Assembly: GCA_035536455.1 (NCBI GenBank)
Contig: DATLOC010000053.1
Location: 61,095 to 125,094, forward strand
Direction: 5' to 3'
Length of the DNA stretch: 64,000 bases
Source of the DNA: Thermoanaerobaculia bacterium
Lineage (GTDB): Bacteria; Acidobacteriota; Thermoanaerobaculia; Multivoradales; UBA5704
In this document: positions 27,996-52,898 of the stretch, one piece after another
How positions within the stretch are numbered: the first letter of the stretch is position 1
How the letters are laid out: each line of letters begins with the position of its first letter
The notes under the pieces: generated by a model
What the model was told of the DNA's origin: nothing
The model's input: only the letters and a program-made list of their open reading frames with translations
Database searches by the model: none
Made by a program: the position numbers and the translations under genes

Positions 27996-28583
27996 TCAGT
28001 CGTCGTGGCCGCACCCCCGGTGGTGGCGGTGGTGGCCGCGGCCGCGCTTGCCGCGGTGCTTGCCGCCGTGACGGTCGTCGTCGCGGTCGTAGCGGCCGCG
28101 GCGGTCACGGCGGTCGTAGCGATCGTCATAGCGGTCGCGGCCGTAGCGGTCGTCGCGGCCGCGACGGTCGTACCGGTCGTCGTAACGACCGTACCGATCG
28201 TCGTAGCAGTCGCGGCCGTAGCCGTCGTAGCCGGCGAAGCGGGGCGCGTAGCGGTCGAACGCCCAGTAGGGGTCCACGTCGTAGCTGCGGAAGTGGGCGC
28301 CGACGAGCGGGCAGGACTCGTGGTGGTAGTAGCGGCCCGCGTCGTGGAAGCAGGAGCGGCTGCACTGGTGGCCGCGGTAGCGGATCGGCCGGTCGTAGCG
28401 GTAGTAGTAGGCGGGTTGGGAGGCGAAGCTCGGTCTGCCGAAGACGAACGAGATGTGCGCGGCGCCGACCCGGAAACCGGCGCCGACCGCGAGCCAATCG
28501 TGGTAGGCCCGCGCCTCGGGGACGAGACCTGGAGCGAACAGCGTCGCCCCGACCAGGACTCCGGCCACAAGCAACTTGCGCAT
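27996..28583 (-). CDS. secreted protein with Cys/His core and extreme Arg/Tyr/Asp-rich, His-rich C-terminal tail
   Basis: Strong SD (AAGGAGG) 9 nt upstream of ATG 28583. Signal peptide MRKLLVAGVLVGATLFAPGLVPEARA. Tail: DDRYGRYDDRYDRRGRDDRYGRDRYDDRYDRRDRRGRYDRDDDRHGGKHRGKRGRGHHRHHRGCGHDD. Confidence 0.65.
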   Translation of the reverse strand: MRKLLVAGVLVGATLFAPGLVPEARAYHDWLAVGAGFRVGAAHISFVFGRPSFASQPAYYYRYDRPIRYRGHQCSRSCFHDAGRYYHHESCPLVGAHFRSYDVDPYWAFDRYAPRFAGYDGYGRDCYDDRYGRYDDRYDRRGRDDRYGRDRYDDRYDRRDRRGRYDRDDDRHGGKHRGKRGRGHHRHHRGCGHDD

Positions 28584-28742: not shown

Positions 28743-29120
28743 ATGGAGGACAAGGACCTGGGGAGGGCGCTGGAGGTGCTGCGGATCGCCCGCGGCTGGA
28801 CGCAGGACGAGCTGAGCCGCGCGGCGGAGATGCGCGGCAGCTCGATCTCCAGGTACGAGAGCGGCAAGGAGCTGCCGGACGCCGACGCCGTGCGGCGGCT
28901 CGTCGCCGCGCTGGGCTTCGCGCCCGACGCCGTGGAGCGGACGCGGCGGTTCCTGGCCGGGCTGCGCGGGGAGAAAGAGGCGAGTGAGAAAGGCGGAGCG
29001 TCTGAGGCCGAAGCGCCTTCGGCACAGCCGGGCGAGGCGGAACGGCTCGAAGCGGAGATCGACGGCGTCGTCTCCGACCTCGGCCGGGTCCTCCGCGAGC
29101 TCGCGCGCCGCCCCGTTTAG
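28743..29120 (+). CDS. XRE-family helix-turn-helix transcriptional regulator
   Basis: HTH_3 pattern LRIARGWTQDELSRAAEMRGSSISRYESGKELPDADAVRRLVAALG, followed by a low-complexity acidic C-half. The last 20 nt including the stop codon belong to the tandem array. Confidence 0.8.
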   Translation: MEDKDLGRALEVLRIARGWTQDELSRAAEMRGSSISRYESGKELPDADAVRRLVAALGFAPDAVERTRRFLAGLRGEKEASEKGGASEAEAPSAQPGEAERLEAEIDGVVSDLGRVLRELARRPV

Positions 29121-29500
29121 CTCCCGGACGCGCCGTGACCGTCCCGGGCGCCCCGTTTCCGTTGTGGGCGCCCGATTTCCATCGCGGGCGCCCCGTTTCC
29201 TTCGTGGGCGCCCAAGATCCGTCGCGGGCGGCCGATTTCCGTCGCGGGCGCCCCATTTCCCTTCCGGGCGCCCCATCTTCGTCGCGGGCGCCGGATTTCC
29301 GTCCCGGGCGCCCCGTTTTCATTACGGGCGGCCAACTTTCCTCCCGGACGCCCGATCTCCGTGGTCGCCCGCCGATCTCCGTCGCGGGCGCTCCGTGAAC
29401 GTGCCGGGCGCTCGGTTGCCGTCGCCGGCGCGCCGCGACCGTCGCGGGCGCCCCGGGATCCTCCCGGGAGCGCGGCGACCGTCACGGGCCGTTCCGTCAG
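29101..29500. repeat. tandem array of about 20 units of exactly 20 bp, consensus about GTCGCGGGCGCCCCGTTTCC
   Basis: Units start at 29101, 29121, 29141 ... 29481 with no indel. Examples: gtcccgggcgccccgtttcc (29141), atcgcgggcgccccgtttcc (29181), gtcgcgggcgccccatttcc (29241), gtcgcgggcgccggatttcc (29281). Units degrade toward both ends. Confidence 0.9.
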
Positions 29501-49639: not shown

Positions 49640-50223
49640 GGAAGGCCAACCAGTCGCTGCTCGACCTCTTCCTCGAGCTCCAGCTCCTCGACCGCATCCC
49701 GCGCGCCGGCTACGTGCTGCGCGGCGTCGCCTACCCGGAGAGCGTCACCGAGCACTCCTGGCACACCGCCTTCCTGGTCTGGGCGCTGGCGGCGGAGGCC
49801 CCCGAGGTGGACCGCGAGCGGGCCGTCGGCATCGCCCTCGTCCACGACCTCGCCGAGCTGCGCATCGGCGACCTCCCGCGCACCGCGGCGCGCTACTTCC
49901 CCGAAGGCGTCAAGCAAGCCGCCGAGACCGCGGCGATCGACGAGGTCCTGGCGCCGCTCCCCGAGGAGGCGCGCCGGCTCTACCGCGAGTACCTGGAGGG
50001 AACGACACCGGAGGCGAAGCTGGTCAAGGCCTGCGACAAGCTCCAGCTCATGGTGAAGGTCGCCGTCTACGAGCGCTGGGGGACGGGAGCGCTGGCGGAG
50101 TTCTGGGACAACCCCGACAACTTCCCCGACGGCGGCTTCCCGGCGGTCAAGGAGCTGTTCGAGGAGCTGCGGAAACGGCGGGAGCAGAACCGGCTGCCGA
50201 TGCCGGGGCCGGTGGCGGAGTAG
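49636..50223 (+). CDS. HD-domain phosphohydrolase (YfbR-like 5-prime-nucleotidase family)
   Basis: ESVTEHSWHTAFL ... ALVHDLAELRIGDLP (H...HD...D). The GTG start overlaps the upstream stop (GTGA). Confidence 0.8.
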   Translation: MRKANQSLLDLFLELQLLDRIPRAGYVLRGVAYPESVTEHSWHTAFLVWALAAEAPEVDRERAVGIALVHDLAELRIGDLPRTAARYFPEGVKQAAETAAIDEVLAPLPEEARRLYREYLEGTTPEAKLVKACDKLQLMVKVAVYERWGTGALAEFWDNPDNFPDGGFPAVKELFEELRKRREQNRLPMPGPVAE

Positions 50224-50253
50224 AGTTAAGCTAGCTACTCGGCGACGCTAGCC

Positions 50254-50481
50254 ATGACTTTCACGCGGATCACGATCGACCCCAAGCAGATGGGCGGAGT
50301 CCCCTGCATCCGCCGACTGCGCATCCCCGTGGCGACCATCGTCGACATGGTGGCCGAGGGTCTAGGCGTCGAAGAGATCCTCGAGGCCTATCCGGACTTG
50401 GAGGCGGAGGACGTCAAGGAGGCCCTACGCTACGCCGCCGAGGCCGTCCGGGAGCGTGAGCTGCCGCTCGTCTCGGCCTGA
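50254..50481 (+). CDS. DUF433-family antitoxin-like protein
   Basis: ITIDPKQMGGVPCIRRLRIPVATIVDMVAEGLGVEEILEAYPDLEAEDVKEALRYA is the DUF433 pattern. Confidence 0.8.
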   Translation: MTFTRITIDPKQMGGVPCIRRLRIPVATIVDMVAEGLGVEEILEAYPDLEAEDVKEALRYAAEAVRERELPLVSA

Positions 50482-50849
50482 TGCGCTTCCTGATCGACAA
50501 CGCCCTCTCTCCAGCACTCGCAGCGGCACTCGGCAACTCGGGGCACGACGCGGTCCACGTCCGCGACGTAGGTCTGCGTAACGCGGACGACGAGGACATC
50601 ATGCTCTTCGCCGCCACGGAAGCGCGGATCGTCGTGTCGGCCGATACCGACTTCGGCGCACTGCTGGCTCTCTACGAGCGACAACTGCCGTCTCTGATTC
50701 TCTTCCGGCGGGGCTCGCCCCGAGCGCCCATCCGCCAGGCAGCCCTCCTGCTTGCCAACCTTCCTCAGCTTGAAGAAGACCTTCAGCGCGGCGCCGTCGT
50801 GAGCATCCACGCCGGTCGCCTTCGCATTCGGCTACTTCCCTTGCGCTAG
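50481..50849 (+). CDS. DUF5615-family PIN-like (Mut7-C-like) putative toxin
   Basis: MRFLIDNALSP...GHDAVHVRDVGL..ADDEDIMLFA..EARIVVSADTDFG. The start shares one base with the DUF433 stop (TGATG). Confidence 0.75.
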   Translation: MRFLIDNALSPALAAALGNSGHDAVHVRDVGLRNADDEDIMLFAATEARIVVSADTDFGALLALYERQLPSLILFRRGSPRAPIRQAALLLANLPQLEEDLQRGAVVSIHAGRLRIRLLPLR

Positions 50850-51083
50850 AAGCAGCCCGCGGATCGCCTCGCCATCTAGCTCGTCGAGGAGCTGCCAGCC
50901 GTTGACGACCTCGCCGTGGTCGGCTTGGAGGATCGACTCCAGCAGGAGCGCCTGCTCTTCCAGGGAGAGGGTGAAGCCCTCCTGGGCTTCCGGCACCAGG
51001 AGGGTGACCGTCGCACCCTCCTCGAGAGTCCCGTCAGGCACGTCCAACTTGCCGCCGACGACCTTCGCGGTGATGACCTTCAT
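50832..51083 (-). CDS. small antitoxin-like protein (DUF104-like N-terminus)
   Basis: MKVITAKVVGGKLDVPDGTLEEGATVTLLV resembles the DUF104 antitoxin beta-barrel start. 83 aa. Convergent 18-nt overlap with the PIN-like gene. Confidence 0.5.
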   Translation of the reverse strand: MKVITAKVVGGKLDVPDGTLEEGATVTLLVPEAQEGFTLSLEEQALLLESILQADHGEVVNGWQLLDELDGEAIRGLLLAQGK

Positions 51084-51095
51084 ACAAGCTTTGGT

Positions 51096-51485
51096 CTATG
51101 CCAGCTCGCGCTTGATGCGCTCCACTAAGCCGCGGGCCGCTGCGATCTCTTCGCGCGCGCCGGCATCGTCGACGACGAACGCCCGGGCGTAGTCGGCTTC
51201 CTCGCGGAACTTCTGCAGCCGCGCCAGCAACCGCGAGGTGGCGGGATCGTAGACCCCGGGCTTCACGAGGTGCGCGTTCCACAGGTGCTGGACCCCGCCG
51301 TGGCTCCGCGGCTCGAGCCCGTCGGCGTAGAGCCGGGCGCGTACCGCGTGGAAGACGGCGAAGTAAGCGCGCGCGAGGGCGATGCGAGGGTGGCCCAGCT
51401 CCAGGAGATGATCGGCGACCCGCAGCTCCTCGTCGGCGAGCTCGAGCTCCGCCGCCGCCGCGTTGCGGCGGCCCTCGGCGGTCAG
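51096..51485 (-). CDS. HEPN-domain protein (toxin partner of the nucleotidyltransferase)
   Basis: AELELADEELRVADHLLELGHPRIALARAYFAVFHAVRARLYADGLEPRSHGGV...FREEADY shows the HEPN layout, including the R-x4-6-H-like RSHGG. There is no ATG/GTG/TTG near the domain start. I provisionally placed the start at CTG 51485, overlapping the upstream stop (CTGA). The ORF-track start at 51644 would overlap the upstream gene by 160 nt. Confidence 0.7.
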   Translation of the reverse strand: MTAEGRRNAAAAELELADEELRVADHLLELGHPRIALARAYFAVFHAVRARLYADGLEPRSHGGVQHLWNAHLVKPGVYDPATSRLLARLQKFREEADYARAFVVDDAGAREEIAAARGLVERIKRELA

Positions 51486-51838
51486 AGCGGGATCCCCTCG
51501 CGCTCTATATCCACGAGCAGCGGGCGCTCCTGGGCGCGCCAGAGAGCGTAGGTTTCGCGATCGAAGATGGCGGGAGAGAGGCGCAGGTCCAAGGGGAGAC
51601 CGACGTCCGTGGCGAGGTCGATCACGTCCCGCTGCGTCGTCCAATCAACGCGTTCCAGCACGACCGCCACGTCGACATCGGAGTCCTCGTCGGCTTCGCC
51701 GCGCGCGAACGAGCCGAAGAGGCGCACCTCGACGACGGCGTCGCCGAGCCGCCGGCGGAGCTCCTGAGCGAAGCGGGCGGCGGCGGTATACGCGAGTGGC
51801 GCGACGGCGACCTTGGGCTCGGCCATGGGACGGGCCAT
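51482..51838 (-). CDS. minimal nucleotidyltransferase (MNT-type antitoxin)
   Basis: LFGSFARGEADEDSDVDVAVV is the GS-x10-DxD nucleotidyltransferase motif. 118 aa. Confidence 0.85.
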   Translation of the reverse strand: MARPMAEPKVAVAPLAYTAAARFAQELRRRLGDAVVEVRLFGSFARGEADEDSDVDVAVVLERVDWTTQRDVIDLATDVGLPLDLRLSPAIFDRETYALWRAQERPLLVDIEREGIPL

Positions 51839-51887
51839 GGTAACACTCGGACTTCTGGCTGCCGCCGCAGCGCTCCTGTCGTTCGTT

Positions 51888-52265
51888 GGGGATTAAGGGT
51901 GCGACGCTCCGCGACGCCCGCCGAGCGGCGGCCAATGGCCTGCGGGAGGCGCGGAACTCCTTGCGGCGGCTTCGGAACCCTTTCCCGGAGCGTGGGAATG
52001 GGTTGCGCGGGCCGGGGAATGGGTTGCGGAGCGCCGGGAACCCTTTCCGAGCGCCTCGGAATAGGTTCCGCAGCGCGCGCAACCCATTCCCGGCGTCGCG
52101 CAATCGATTCCCGGCGCCGCGCAGGAGGTTCCGTCGGGCGCGCAGGAGGTTCCGAGGTCCCGGGAAGACATTGGGAGGCTCCACCGGGGCGTCTGAAGGT
52201 CGCGCGGGGACATTCCGGGGCTTCCGGCGGGCGTTACGCCAGGCGCGCAGGATCTCGGCCGGCAC
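51888..52265. repeat. tandem array of about 18 units of 21 bp related to the 29101-29500 array, with unit orientation switching in the middle
   Basis: 21-bp register: 51993 tgggaatgggttgcgcgggcc; 52014 ggggaatgggttgcggagcgc; 52035 cgggaaccctttccgagcgcc; 52056 tcggaataggttccgcagcgc; 52077 gcgcaacccattcccggcgtc; 52098 gcgcaatcgattcccggcgcc; 52119 and 52140 gcgcaggaggttcc.... GGGAATGGGTTGCG (left) is the exact reverse complement of CGCAACCCATTCCC (right). Confidence 0.85.
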
Positions 52266-52298
52266 GCTGGCCTGGCGCGGCCCGCCGAGGGCCGGGAC

Positions 52299-52898
52299 CT
52301 ACTCGCTTCGCCGGCGCGACTTGCCCTTTTCGCCTTCCAGCTCGATGCCGCGCTTGCCGAGGAGCTTCTTGAGGCGGGCGTAGATGTTCTCGCCGAGGAG
52401 GGAGTTGGCGGTGGTCGTCAGGTCGCGCAGCACGGTGCGCAGCTCCTCGGAGCCGCTCCAGTGGCGGCGGGCGTAGTTCTCCAGCTCGCCGCCGAAGGCC
52501 TGGGAGAGGACGGCCGCGGCGAGGACCAGGTCCTCCAGATAGCCGGCGCCGCCGATCAGCGCTTCGGGGAGGAGGTCGGTCGGCAGGATGAAGTACGCGA
52601 TGGCGCCGCCGATCAGCGCGCGCGTCGGCCCCGGGACGTCCTTGTCGAGGGCCAGCCGCACCAGCAGCATGAAGACGTCGGGGACGAGGAGGAGCGCCTT
52701 GAGCGCCTTGCCCGAGAGCTTCCCGCCCTTGCTCTCGGCGGTCGTGACCACCCGGCCGCGCAGCCGGTCGTAGAAGGAGAGGAGGCCGGTCGAGCGCAGC
52801 TCGCTCTCGAGCTCGGCGCCGCCGCGGACGAGCGCCGTCTCCGAGCGCTCCTCCGCCGCCGCGATCTCCACGTCAGGGTCCTTCGTCAGGTTGGCCAT
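52299..52898 (-). CDS. DUF1232 (YkvA-like) membrane protein
   Basis: AIAYFILPTDLLPEALIGGAGYLEDLVLAAAVL matches the Y..xP.DliPd..p..GyxDD pattern of DUF1232. Confidence 0.7.
   Translation of the reverse strand: MANLTKDPDVEIAAAEERSETALVRGGAELESELRSTGLLSFYDRLRGRVVTTAESKGGKLSGKALKALLLVPDVFMLLVRLALDKDVPGPTRALIGGAIAYFILPTDLLPEALIGGAGYLEDLVLAAAVLSQAFGGELENYARRHWSGSEELRTVLRDLTTTANSLLGENIYARLKKLLGKRGIELEGEKGKSRRRSE

Follow-up and report, generated by a model that had tools for sequence, protein, structure and literature searches.

What is the tandem array at 51888-52265 of the 64,000-nucleotide stretch of Thermoanaerobaculia DNA analyzed here (contig DATLOC010000053.1, positions 61,095 to 125,094; hereafter the window), and what holds its units to a period of 21 bp? 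The array, which we call array 2 to set it apart from a sister element at 29101-29500 (array 1), lies between a conserved DUF1232 gene and an MNT-HEPN pair of toxin-antitoxin type. A first-pass annotation, made from the letters alone, had described it as two opposed blocks of 21-bp repeats at the edge of a toxin-antitoxin islet. We confirmed that the repeat array is real. It is also well supported that array 2 is a non-coding chromosomal tandem array, one of a class common in the intergenic DNA of Thermoanaerobaculia and Holophagales whose period is 19-21 bp or double that. As to its role, we tentatively propose that array 2 is a satellite-like element of local origin that forms a phased lattice for a putative binding protein, acting at the level of DNA and situated at a fragile junction of a conserved gene end with a variable toxin-antitoxin islet.

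The register of the array is exact. When eight informative core positions were scored in phase, with a strong unit defined as one matching at least 7 of 8 (background frequency 0.09%), 11 strong units were found at 51953-52174 (starts 51953 to 52163), all in an exact 21-bp register; eight have the exact core and three match it at 7/8. All eight matches to GSAANNNNTTSC in the window sit within array 2, from 51953 to 52100 at exact 21-bp spacing, compared with a mean of 1.4 and a maximum of 5 matches in shuffled sequence. Weaker in-phase units flank the strong ones, with five of the seven flanking in-phase positions (51911, 51932, 52205, 52226 and 52247) scoring 5-6 of 8. Two such degenerate units lie on the MNT side at 51911-51952, with scores of 5 and 6 (a score of at least 5 has a background of 6%), and about four lie on the DUF1232 side at 52175-52265 (scores 2, 5, 5 and 5 of 8), where the unit at 52205 retains ACATTCC. 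The total comes to about 17 units spanning 51911-52265, in keeping with the roughly 18 units in strict register, best conserved at 51951-52160, that had been noted from the letters. Each unit combines a 12-bp dyad core, G[G/C]AA-N4-TT[G/C]C, with a 9-bp G+C-rich spacer, and core positions A4, T10 and T11 are retained in 10 of 10 units.

Orientation changes along the array. Left units read GGAA..TTGC, central units GGAA..TTCC and right units GCAA/GCAG..TTCC, and the individual units named in the first-pass annotation were all found in place: GGGAATGGGTTGCG at 51994 and 52015, the near-palindromic central units at 52037 and 52058, CGCAACCCATTCCC and CGCAATCGATTCCC at 52078 and 52099, and CGCAGGAGGTTCC at 52120 and 52141. 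The best inverted repeat has arms of 35 nt that are 83% complementary, the left (51994-52028) made of two GGAATGGGTTGC units and the right (52078-52112) of GCAACCCATTCC and GCAATCGATTCC units, with unit u7 the exact reverse complement of the u4 core. Its centre of symmetry, 52053, falls within the two central near-palindromic units (52037-52069), themselves an inverted-repeat pair, where the apex of the predicted hairpin is placed. Unit by unit, clear mirror images are confined to u3/u4 against u7/u8, the outer units being only weakly mirrored; the number of shared positions, out of 22, is 13.0 for mirror pairs and 11.9 for other pairs. Given that only the inner units are clearly mirrored, the two opposed blocks described earlier stand at the level of half-sites and not as a clean block inversion; the clean inversion of a five-unit block was rejected on the same ground, only the inner two units per side being clearly mirrored. 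Half-site mismatches, present in 6 of 10 units with arms of 4 bp, are G.G or C.C and never wobble pairs. Array 2 is thus a row of near-palindromes, the degeneration of half-sites running in one sense on the left and in the other on the right.

Since 21 bp make seven codons, long ORFs stay open through the array on both strands (51886-52383 (+), 165 aa, and 51645-52265 (-), 206 aa), raising the question of whether it encodes an Arg-rich heptad-repeat protein. However, codon-position GC is flat (0.62-0.88) over 51840-52298, compared with 0.9-1.0 at third positions in the flanking genes, and the 460-bp gap between the DUF1232 stop and the MNT start carries no coding signal. Neither ORF has a Pfam match, and a search of the 165-aa ORF against 5.8 billion proteins gave no homologue save one match covering 18% of the ORF. 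In addition, the units of relatives at the same site are unrelated, gene calling gave no genes in those gaps, and sister arrays with periods of 19 and 20 bp cannot hold a reading frame. A coding role is therefore extremely improbable, and the Arg-rich ORFs, the spurious 165-aa one included, are a by-product, as had been supposed.

Neither a known RNA family nor a plasmid origin accounts for the array. The window has no Rfam match at gathering score, and even at a permissive E-value (<=10) the matches are generic, mostly microRNA-precursor hairpins, the best of them scoring 34 bits where 168 are needed for the gathering score; a known RNA family was therefore rejected. Against plasmids, blastn gave no meaningful match (one match of 44 nt lies inside a gene), and against phages it gave none. 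No par or rep genes were found near array 2 or in the islets of relatives. The surroundings are chromosomal, with synteny to cox, UbiA and LptD genes on contigs as long as 5.5 Mb; to one side of the locus relatives retain LptD, sugar epimerases, DUF92, UbiA and DUF1232, and to the other HD and cytochrome oxidase genes. The likeness to plasmid partition or incompatibility sites, suggested earlier from the opposed direct repeats, did not hold, in view of the chromosomal locus, the absence of par/rep genes and of plasmid or phage similarity, and the occurrence of about 40 arrays beside unrelated genes.

These other arrays came from 80 DUF1232-centred loci fetched from species-representative genomes, from which 1.47 Mb of Thermoanaerobaculia/Holophagales sequence was scanned (loci and contigs used for comparison carry L numbers below). 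Tandem Repeats Finder, at four copies or more, returned periods of 20 bp (10 arrays), 21 bp (20), 42 bp (7), 19 bp (2) and 63 bp (2), and almost nothing else. Autocorrelation over lags 8-44 gave 124 periodic segments, 97 of them at lag 19-21 or 38-43, and the lags of the remainder are all multiples of 3, being those of coding repeats. In contrast, the same scan of 763 kb of unrelated metagenome and viral contigs returned lags of 8, 10, 11, 12, 14, 15, 16, 20, 21, 22, 24, 27, 28, 30, 32 and others, indicating that the method is not blind to other periods. About 40 distinct periodic loci resulted, most of them intergenic; a few with a 21-bp period may be coding, and those of 19 or 20 bp cannot be. 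Full-text literature searches found no earlier description of such arrays in Acidobacteriota, and the class is previously undescribed.

The arrays occupy intergenic gaps, many starting within 0-50 nt of a stop codon, and convergent gaps are enriched for them (11/86 against 14/310, odds ratio 3.1, p = 0.01, from crude gene calls). No partner gene is common to the roughly 35 proteins that flank Thermoanaerobaculia arrays and metagenome arrays with a GSAA-N4-TTSC core. The neighbors include an IS transposase, M23, M19 and trypsin peptidases, COX3, HD, ArgR (twice), AlkZ, PadR, XRE and a glycolipid-binding protein, and many arrays sit between housekeeping genes without any islet. The unit sequence varies from locus to locus, and also among close relatives at one locus. 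Arrays within a genome resemble one another no more than arrays from different genomes do, for which reason a genome-specific trans-acting factor was rejected. A motif common to the arrays was also sought; TCCGGCGAG, GAAGC and AGTCACT each occur in a few arrays and none is universal, as judged against an imperfect null model.

A constant core and a variable spacer can be told apart in several arrays. L081 has 27 units of TACGnnGnnnCnCCAAACnT in which an invariant core stands beside a hypervariable spacer, and L051 and L014 (32 units) are built likewise. The arrays of L001 and L002 differ by a 63-bp indel, and their substitutions spare the GTACG core (1 of 65 columns, against 20 of 161 elsewhere, p = 0.01). 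Super-units of 40, 42, 63 and 83 bp were found in the arrays, and at L039, L043 and L068 a single unit type at one locus forms in-register forward and reverse blocks. The same loci bear arrays in species whose flanking proteins share only 81-87% identity. Dyad symmetry exceeds chance by no more than a narrow margin and was rejected as a universal feature of the class. In L012 (15319-19068), a 21-bp array homologous to the 32-unit array of L014 is interrupted by an IS element, which has terminal inverted repeats GGGGGCACTGTCCTAGTTTGA and carries two IS1-like transposase ORFs.

Arrays with the core of array 2 are also found outside this lineage. When metagenomes were scanned for three GSAA-N4-TTSC cores spaced 21 bp apart, at least 120 contigs were returned, with G+C of 31-72% and up to 15 units. 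Those with GGAA-N4-TTCC or GCAA-N4-TTGC cores (L088-L207) include L181 (15 units), L194 (12) and L141 (10, at about 500x coverage), all intergenic and with unrelated neighbors. In a collection of this size, some 120 contigs or more is about what a large population of random-sequence 21-bp arrays would yield; the count thus gives no sign of anything special in GGAA-N4-TTCC, and a special role for it was not retained. Among viral sequences, 29 contigs carry mini-arrays of 3-5 units, beside unrelated neighbors and in a PHROGs context that is uninformative.

The same site in relatives reveals how quickly unit sequence is replaced while position is kept. Synteny with relatives breaks at the DUF1232 stop codon, and directly after that stop five different unit types are found, although the DUF1232 proteins of these relatives are 80-97% identical to that of the window. 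The arrays are of AAAGTACGCTTGTACC... in L001 and L002 (period 21 bp), GGAGCGAGTAGATCCAGGACC in L003 (21 bp), GTAGCGGGCCGTCCGCGACG in L005 (20 bp) and a mosaic of unit types in L008 (about 21 bp); no relative with the unit type of array 2 was found. In L003 the unit, and in L008 one of the unit types, duplicates the very end of DUF1232, stop codon included, indicating that any local 21-mer can be amplified. L025, L030, L056 and L060 likewise have arrays at the DUF1232 end. That of L056 (10414-10640, directly after the stop) alternates a perfect 21-bp palindrome, GGAGGGCAGTCACTGCCCTCC, with variable segments of 21 bp.

The segment between DUF1232 and HD (50224-52298 in the window; about 10600-17000 in L001, L002, L003 and L005) is a hotspot of variable content, holding MNT, HEPN, PIN, DUF433, ParE, AAA_14/DUF4143 or an MmeI-type restriction-modification gene depending on the relative. 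No integrase or transposase was found in or beside the islet in the window and five relatives. Islet and array are both absent from the array 2 site in L006. At the site of array 1, the array, its neighboring HTH gene and a 195-aa ORF are jointly absent from L238 and jointly present, with the same 20-bp unit, in L240 and L241. Array presence thus tracks islet presence at both loci examined, those of the two window arrays. The placement of array 2 at the edge of a toxin-antitoxin islet was borne out, and an islet-edge position is seen again at array 1 and in relatives.

Array 1 is a sister element of the same class. Its 20-bp unit is GGGCGCCC-NN-TTTCC, and the first unit (29101-29120, GCGCCGCCCCGTTTAG) coincides with the last five codons and stop codon of an XRE-HTH gene (28743-29120). 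This identity means that either the C-terminal tail of the XRE-HTH protein derives from the array or the gene end seeded the array. A collinear orthologue is present in L240 (2481-2900) and L241, with a flanking protein 87% identical; array 1 and L240 differ by an indel of one 20-bp unit, and GGGCGCC is invariant. Elsewhere in the window, matches to the array 1 unit are at chance level. The resemblance between the cores of arrays 1 and 2 that had been pointed out earlier is a weak one, at the 88th percentile of array pairs from different genomes, and does not support a special kinship. Beside the HTH gene lies the 195-aa ORF (27996-28583, -), rich in Arg, Asp and Tyr (RYDDRYDRR...) and without a family assignment; it contains coding repeats of 9 and 27 bp at 28077-28233 and is conserved in L240 as a 193-aa ORF.

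Does array 2 act as DNA or as RNA? The entire array is predicted to fold as a single long hairpin on both strands (z = -7.8), and many sister arrays have fold z-scores of -4 to -9; L081, L030a and L050 have no palindrome or a z near 0. It should be kept in mind that shuffling destroys any repeat, and thus a fold z-score is inflated for tandem arrays. We therefore asked about pairing itself in one orthologous pair of flip-containing arrays: the fold predicted from L039 was scored in L043 and vice versa, for each strand. Pairs preserved by one-sided changes number 13-25 and pairs disrupted by them 19-30, the two strands behave alike, and columns are substituted at a rate of 21% where paired and 25% where unpaired. 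As one-sided changes break as many pairs as they keep, at equal rates, there is no selection for base-pairing. An RNAalifold result free of broken pairs was dismissed as support, as it holds by construction. A selected long hairpin or cruciform was accordingly rejected, most sister arrays also being purely direct repeats. The large imperfect dyad first proposed to extrude a cruciform or fold as a hairpin is real as a dyad (35 nt, 83%), and selection for the hairpin or cruciform is unsupported.

It is well supported that the arrays arise and turn over in place: whole units are gained or lost, others are inverted in register, and units can even be copies of the last codons of the adjacent gene, as in L003, L008 and array 1. 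Position therefore persists across relatives while unit sequence changes fast. In the working model that we infer for array 2, the short A/T-containing dyad core GGAA-N4-TTCC would recur every two helical turns in G+C-rich DNA, placing all cores on the same face of the helix, and would act at the level of DNA. The result would be a phased lattice for a dimeric or oligomerizing DNA-binding protein, either nucleoid-type or specific, and since the core is palindromic a flipped unit would leave the lattice intact. So placed, array 2 would separate DUF1232 from the MNT-HEPN operon. Being repetitive and partly palindromic, the DNA there probably constitutes a fragile junction where toxin-antitoxin, restriction and regulator islets are gained and lost.

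The two-turn period, the cores holding the rare A/T and the indifference to orientation fit such a DNA-level lattice better than RNA hairpins. In its favor are also the 19-21-bp ruler (97 of 124 segments) in contrast to the broad lags of unrelated contigs; the constraint on the core in L081, L001/L002, array 1/L240 and at A4, T10 and T11 of array 2; an array position kept after the DUF1232 stop while unit sequence is replaced; and the lack of an array where there is no islet (L006), the IS element inside one array and the recurrence of in-register flips. Several observations weigh against it. The neighbors of about 35 arrays share no family and hence offer no candidate binding protein, and the sequence differences between arrays of one genome would demand either a very tolerant single binder or many binders. 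Conversion between units, and not selection, could account in part for the contrast between core and spacer in orthologues, and the symmetric conservation in array 2 is partly automatic when both orientations of one unit are mixed. Moreover, between L070 and L077 the A/T of the core erodes, and the dyad symmetry of unit consensus sequences hardly exceeds chance (mean arm 4.2 nt, against 3.7 expected in G+C-rich DNA).

The main rival is a functionless or selfish minisatellite, the by-product of a lineage-specific process, whether slipped or template-switch replication or unequal recombination, that favors duplications of 20-21 bp and is tolerated at gene 3' ends and in convergent gaps. Any local sequence can be amplified, even the ends of DUF1232 and the HTH gene with their stop codons, and such a process would accommodate the fast turnover between close relatives and the lack of a common neighbor gene. 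The enrichment in convergent gaps (11/86 against 14/310, p = 0.01) fits tolerance as well as function, and the absence of selection for pairing, the palindromy barely above chance and the erosion of A/T from the core in L077 all agree with it. However, we know of no mutational process with a 19-21-bp ruler, and unrelated contigs show broad periods. Neutral divergence should also be even, yet L081, L051 and array 1 have invariant cores beside near-random spacers, and arrays persist at the same loci although flanking proteins have diverged to 81-87% identity. We regard this explanation as possible but doubtful. A role in RNA is unlikely. In this case array 2 would be the 3' UTR of DUF1232, the leader of MNT-HEPN, or both, with hairpins that terminate transcription, shield the upstream mRNA against 3' exonucleases or give long double-stranded RNA, in the manner of repetitive extragenic palindromes (REPs) and bacterial interspersed mosaic elements (BIMEs). 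REPs are extragenic palindromes of 20-40 bp for which roles in termination, mRNA stability and supercoiling have been proposed (PMC3733652). The position of array 2, 34 nt past the DUF1232 stop, that of many sisters within 0-50 nt of a stop and in convergent gaps, and the strong predicted self-complementarity on both strands, here and in many sisters, would suit such a role. On the other hand, half-site mismatches are G.G or C.C and not wobble, pairs are broken (19-30) as often as they are kept (13-25) between L039 and L043, and L081, L030a and L050 lack a palindrome or fold with a z near 0. Neither a sigma-70 promoter nor an intrinsic terminator was found in 51400-52700, and no Rfam family matches. 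Nor does a hairpin model explain a fixed 19-21-nt period, and the unit is not dispersed over the window as that of a REP family would be.

More improbable still is a feature of a mobile element, that is, stacked recombinase or transposase sites at the end of the islet, footprints of insertions at the 3' end of DUF1232, or a partition site or operator of MNT-HEPN. Tandem sites of 20-22 bp are typical of the ends of Tn7 and Mu, of plasmid iterons and of pSK41 parC, and array 2 lies exactly at a synteny break, with array tracking islet at two loci. The units of L003 and L008 repeat a gene 3' end, as att cores do, a staggered-cut enzyme would yield a fixed duplication length, and one metagenome array lies beside a Mu-type transposase gene. 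Nevertheless, no integrase, transposase, par or rep gene was found in or beside the islet in the window and five relatives, and the other islet boundary (50223-50254) has no matching array. Numerous arrays are flanked by housekeeping genes and have no islet beside them, nothing similar was found in plasmids or phages, MNT antitoxins lack a DNA-binding domain, and to our knowledge no element makes target duplications of 20-21 bp.

Beyond the DNA-level lattice that we favor for array 2, a broader picture can be drawn, albeit speculatively. Thermoanaerobaculia and Holophagales might possess a genome-wide "bacterial satellite" system, in which dozens of locus-specific arrays are held to two helical turns by one molecular ruler and mark or create the junctions where defense and toxin-antitoxin islets are exchanged. 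One candidate for the ruler would be an abundant protein that wraps DNA or forms filaments on it and recognizes periodic A/T-containing cores, not an exact sequence; another would be an enzyme that duplicates segments of 20-21 bp, comparable to a staggered-cut integrase. As to the order of events, the arrays may arrive with the islets, or fragile arrays may attract insertions. If the ruler is a protein, it would point to an unrecognized mode of chromosome organization or insulation in a major uncultured soil lineage, and bacteria would offer a counterpart to eukaryotes, where satellite period is linked to chromatin. If it is instead a duplication mechanism, it would be a new mutational process that builds repeats and destabilizes the junctions where defense islets turn over. 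In practical terms, the arrays break short-read assemblies and spawn long false ORFs in G+C-rich genomes, and annotators of Acidobacteriota metagenome-assembled genomes (MAGs) should mask them.

The genes around array 2 agree with what had been read from the letters. The window has a G+C content of 72%, and its proteins assign it to Thermoanaerobaculia (Acidobacteriota). Its nearest reference is MAG MFD05747.bin.1.131 (chromosome OY969474.1), with a DUF1232 protein 97% identical; no exact match to the window protein is on record. Pfam families among the neighbors are DUF1232, MNT, HEPN, DUF433, PIN and HD. The conserved DUF1232/YkvA membrane-protein gene occupies 52299-52898 (-), its stop codon 34 nt from the array region. 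Downstream of the array, the first gene of the variable islet encodes an antitoxin-like MNT nucleotidyltransferase (51482-51838, -; Pfam), followed by its toxin-like partner, an ORF containing HEPN (51096-51644, -; PF05168, E = 8e-14, residues 67-178). The start codon of the HEPN ORF is uncertain: no ATG, GTG or TTG lies near the MNT stop, the sole listed start is 160 nt inside MNT, and in L237 the gene caller splits the HEPN region. A DUF433 and PIN-like (DUF5615) pair (50254-50849, +; Pfam) forms a second toxin-antitoxin-like module of the islet. The 13-mer CGCAGGATCTCGG occurs 41-44 nt from the DUF1232 stop both in the window (52246-52258) and in L005 (10659-10671), in opposite orientation with respect to the gene, which hints at a small inversion beside the DUF1232 end. 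Positions 1-460 of L237, an independent short-read contig (SRR8544467), are 100% identical to 51466-51925 of the window, and the contig ends at the array edge. This end fits a repeat-induced break in assembly and confirms the flank rather than the array itself.

How do the arrays compare with known systems? An integron attC site is a single imperfect hairpin of 57-141 nt that has R/L core boxes (GTTRRRY) and lies beside cassettes, whereas array 2 is a multi-unit structure of 220 nt in which no R boxes are seen by eye, and most of its sisters are direct repeats. CRISPR arrays share the regular, partly palindromic repeats with variable intervals, most clearly in L056 with its 21-bp palindromes and 21-bp variable segments. 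However, the "spacers" of our arrays are of 8-21 bp and mutually related, those of L056 included, the repeats are degenerate, and a genome has many arrays, each with its own repeat. The unit of array 2 measures 21 bp in total, core and spacer together, in contrast to the near-identical repeats of 23-47 nt of CRISPR, which alternate with unique spacers of similar length and usually have cas genes nearby; no cas genes are found among the neighbors of array 2. Iteron and centromere arrays of plasmids and phages include the 22-bp iterons of R6K and pSC101, the 20-bp repeats of pSK41 parC and the palindromic iterons of the lambda origin. They too are tandem sites of about 20-22 bp, or two helical turns, in which a conserved core, often with dyad symmetry, goes with a variable spacer; some blocks are opposed in orientation, and versions with 3-5 units are present in viral contigs. 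Unlike them, the arrays come without rep/par genes or an A+T-rich unwinding region, have 10-32 units and no plasmid or phage similarity, and lie in a chromosomal housekeeping context, where an array is met about every 30-50 kb instead of once in a replicon.

Bacterial minisatellites, or variable-number tandem repeats (VNTRs), of which the mycobacterial MIRU are an example, are likewise intergenic and head-to-tail. Sister arrays vary by whole units as VNTRs do (L001 and L002 differ by 63 bp, array 1 and its L240 orthologue by 20 bp), and the super-units of 40, 42, 63 and 83 bp are what unequal exchange predicts. Known VNTR sets, in contrast, have many unrelated periods, whereas here one period dominates a whole bacterial class, and conserved cores contrast with hypervariable spacers. 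The nearest described elements are REPs. With the REPs and BIMEs of proteobacteria the arrays share short, partly palindromic, extragenic units that are specific to a lineage and occur in both orientations within one cluster, a preference for gene 3' ends and convergent gaps (array 2 lies 34 nt past a stop; the odds ratio for the class is 3.1), and, in REPs, proposed roles at the level of DNA (gyrase, IHF) as well as RNA; the BIME-2 of E. coli are gyrase sites. A REP, however, is a single sequence repeated over tens or even hundreds of loci, which RAYT (Y1/HUH) transposases disseminate and which bears a GTAG/CGTC tag. Array units are locus-specific, with no second copy in 64 kb, have stems of only 4-5 bp and, in array 2, no conserved GTAG/CGTC. 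In contrast to REPs, the arrays run strictly head-to-tail at a fixed period of 19-21 bp for up to 32 units.

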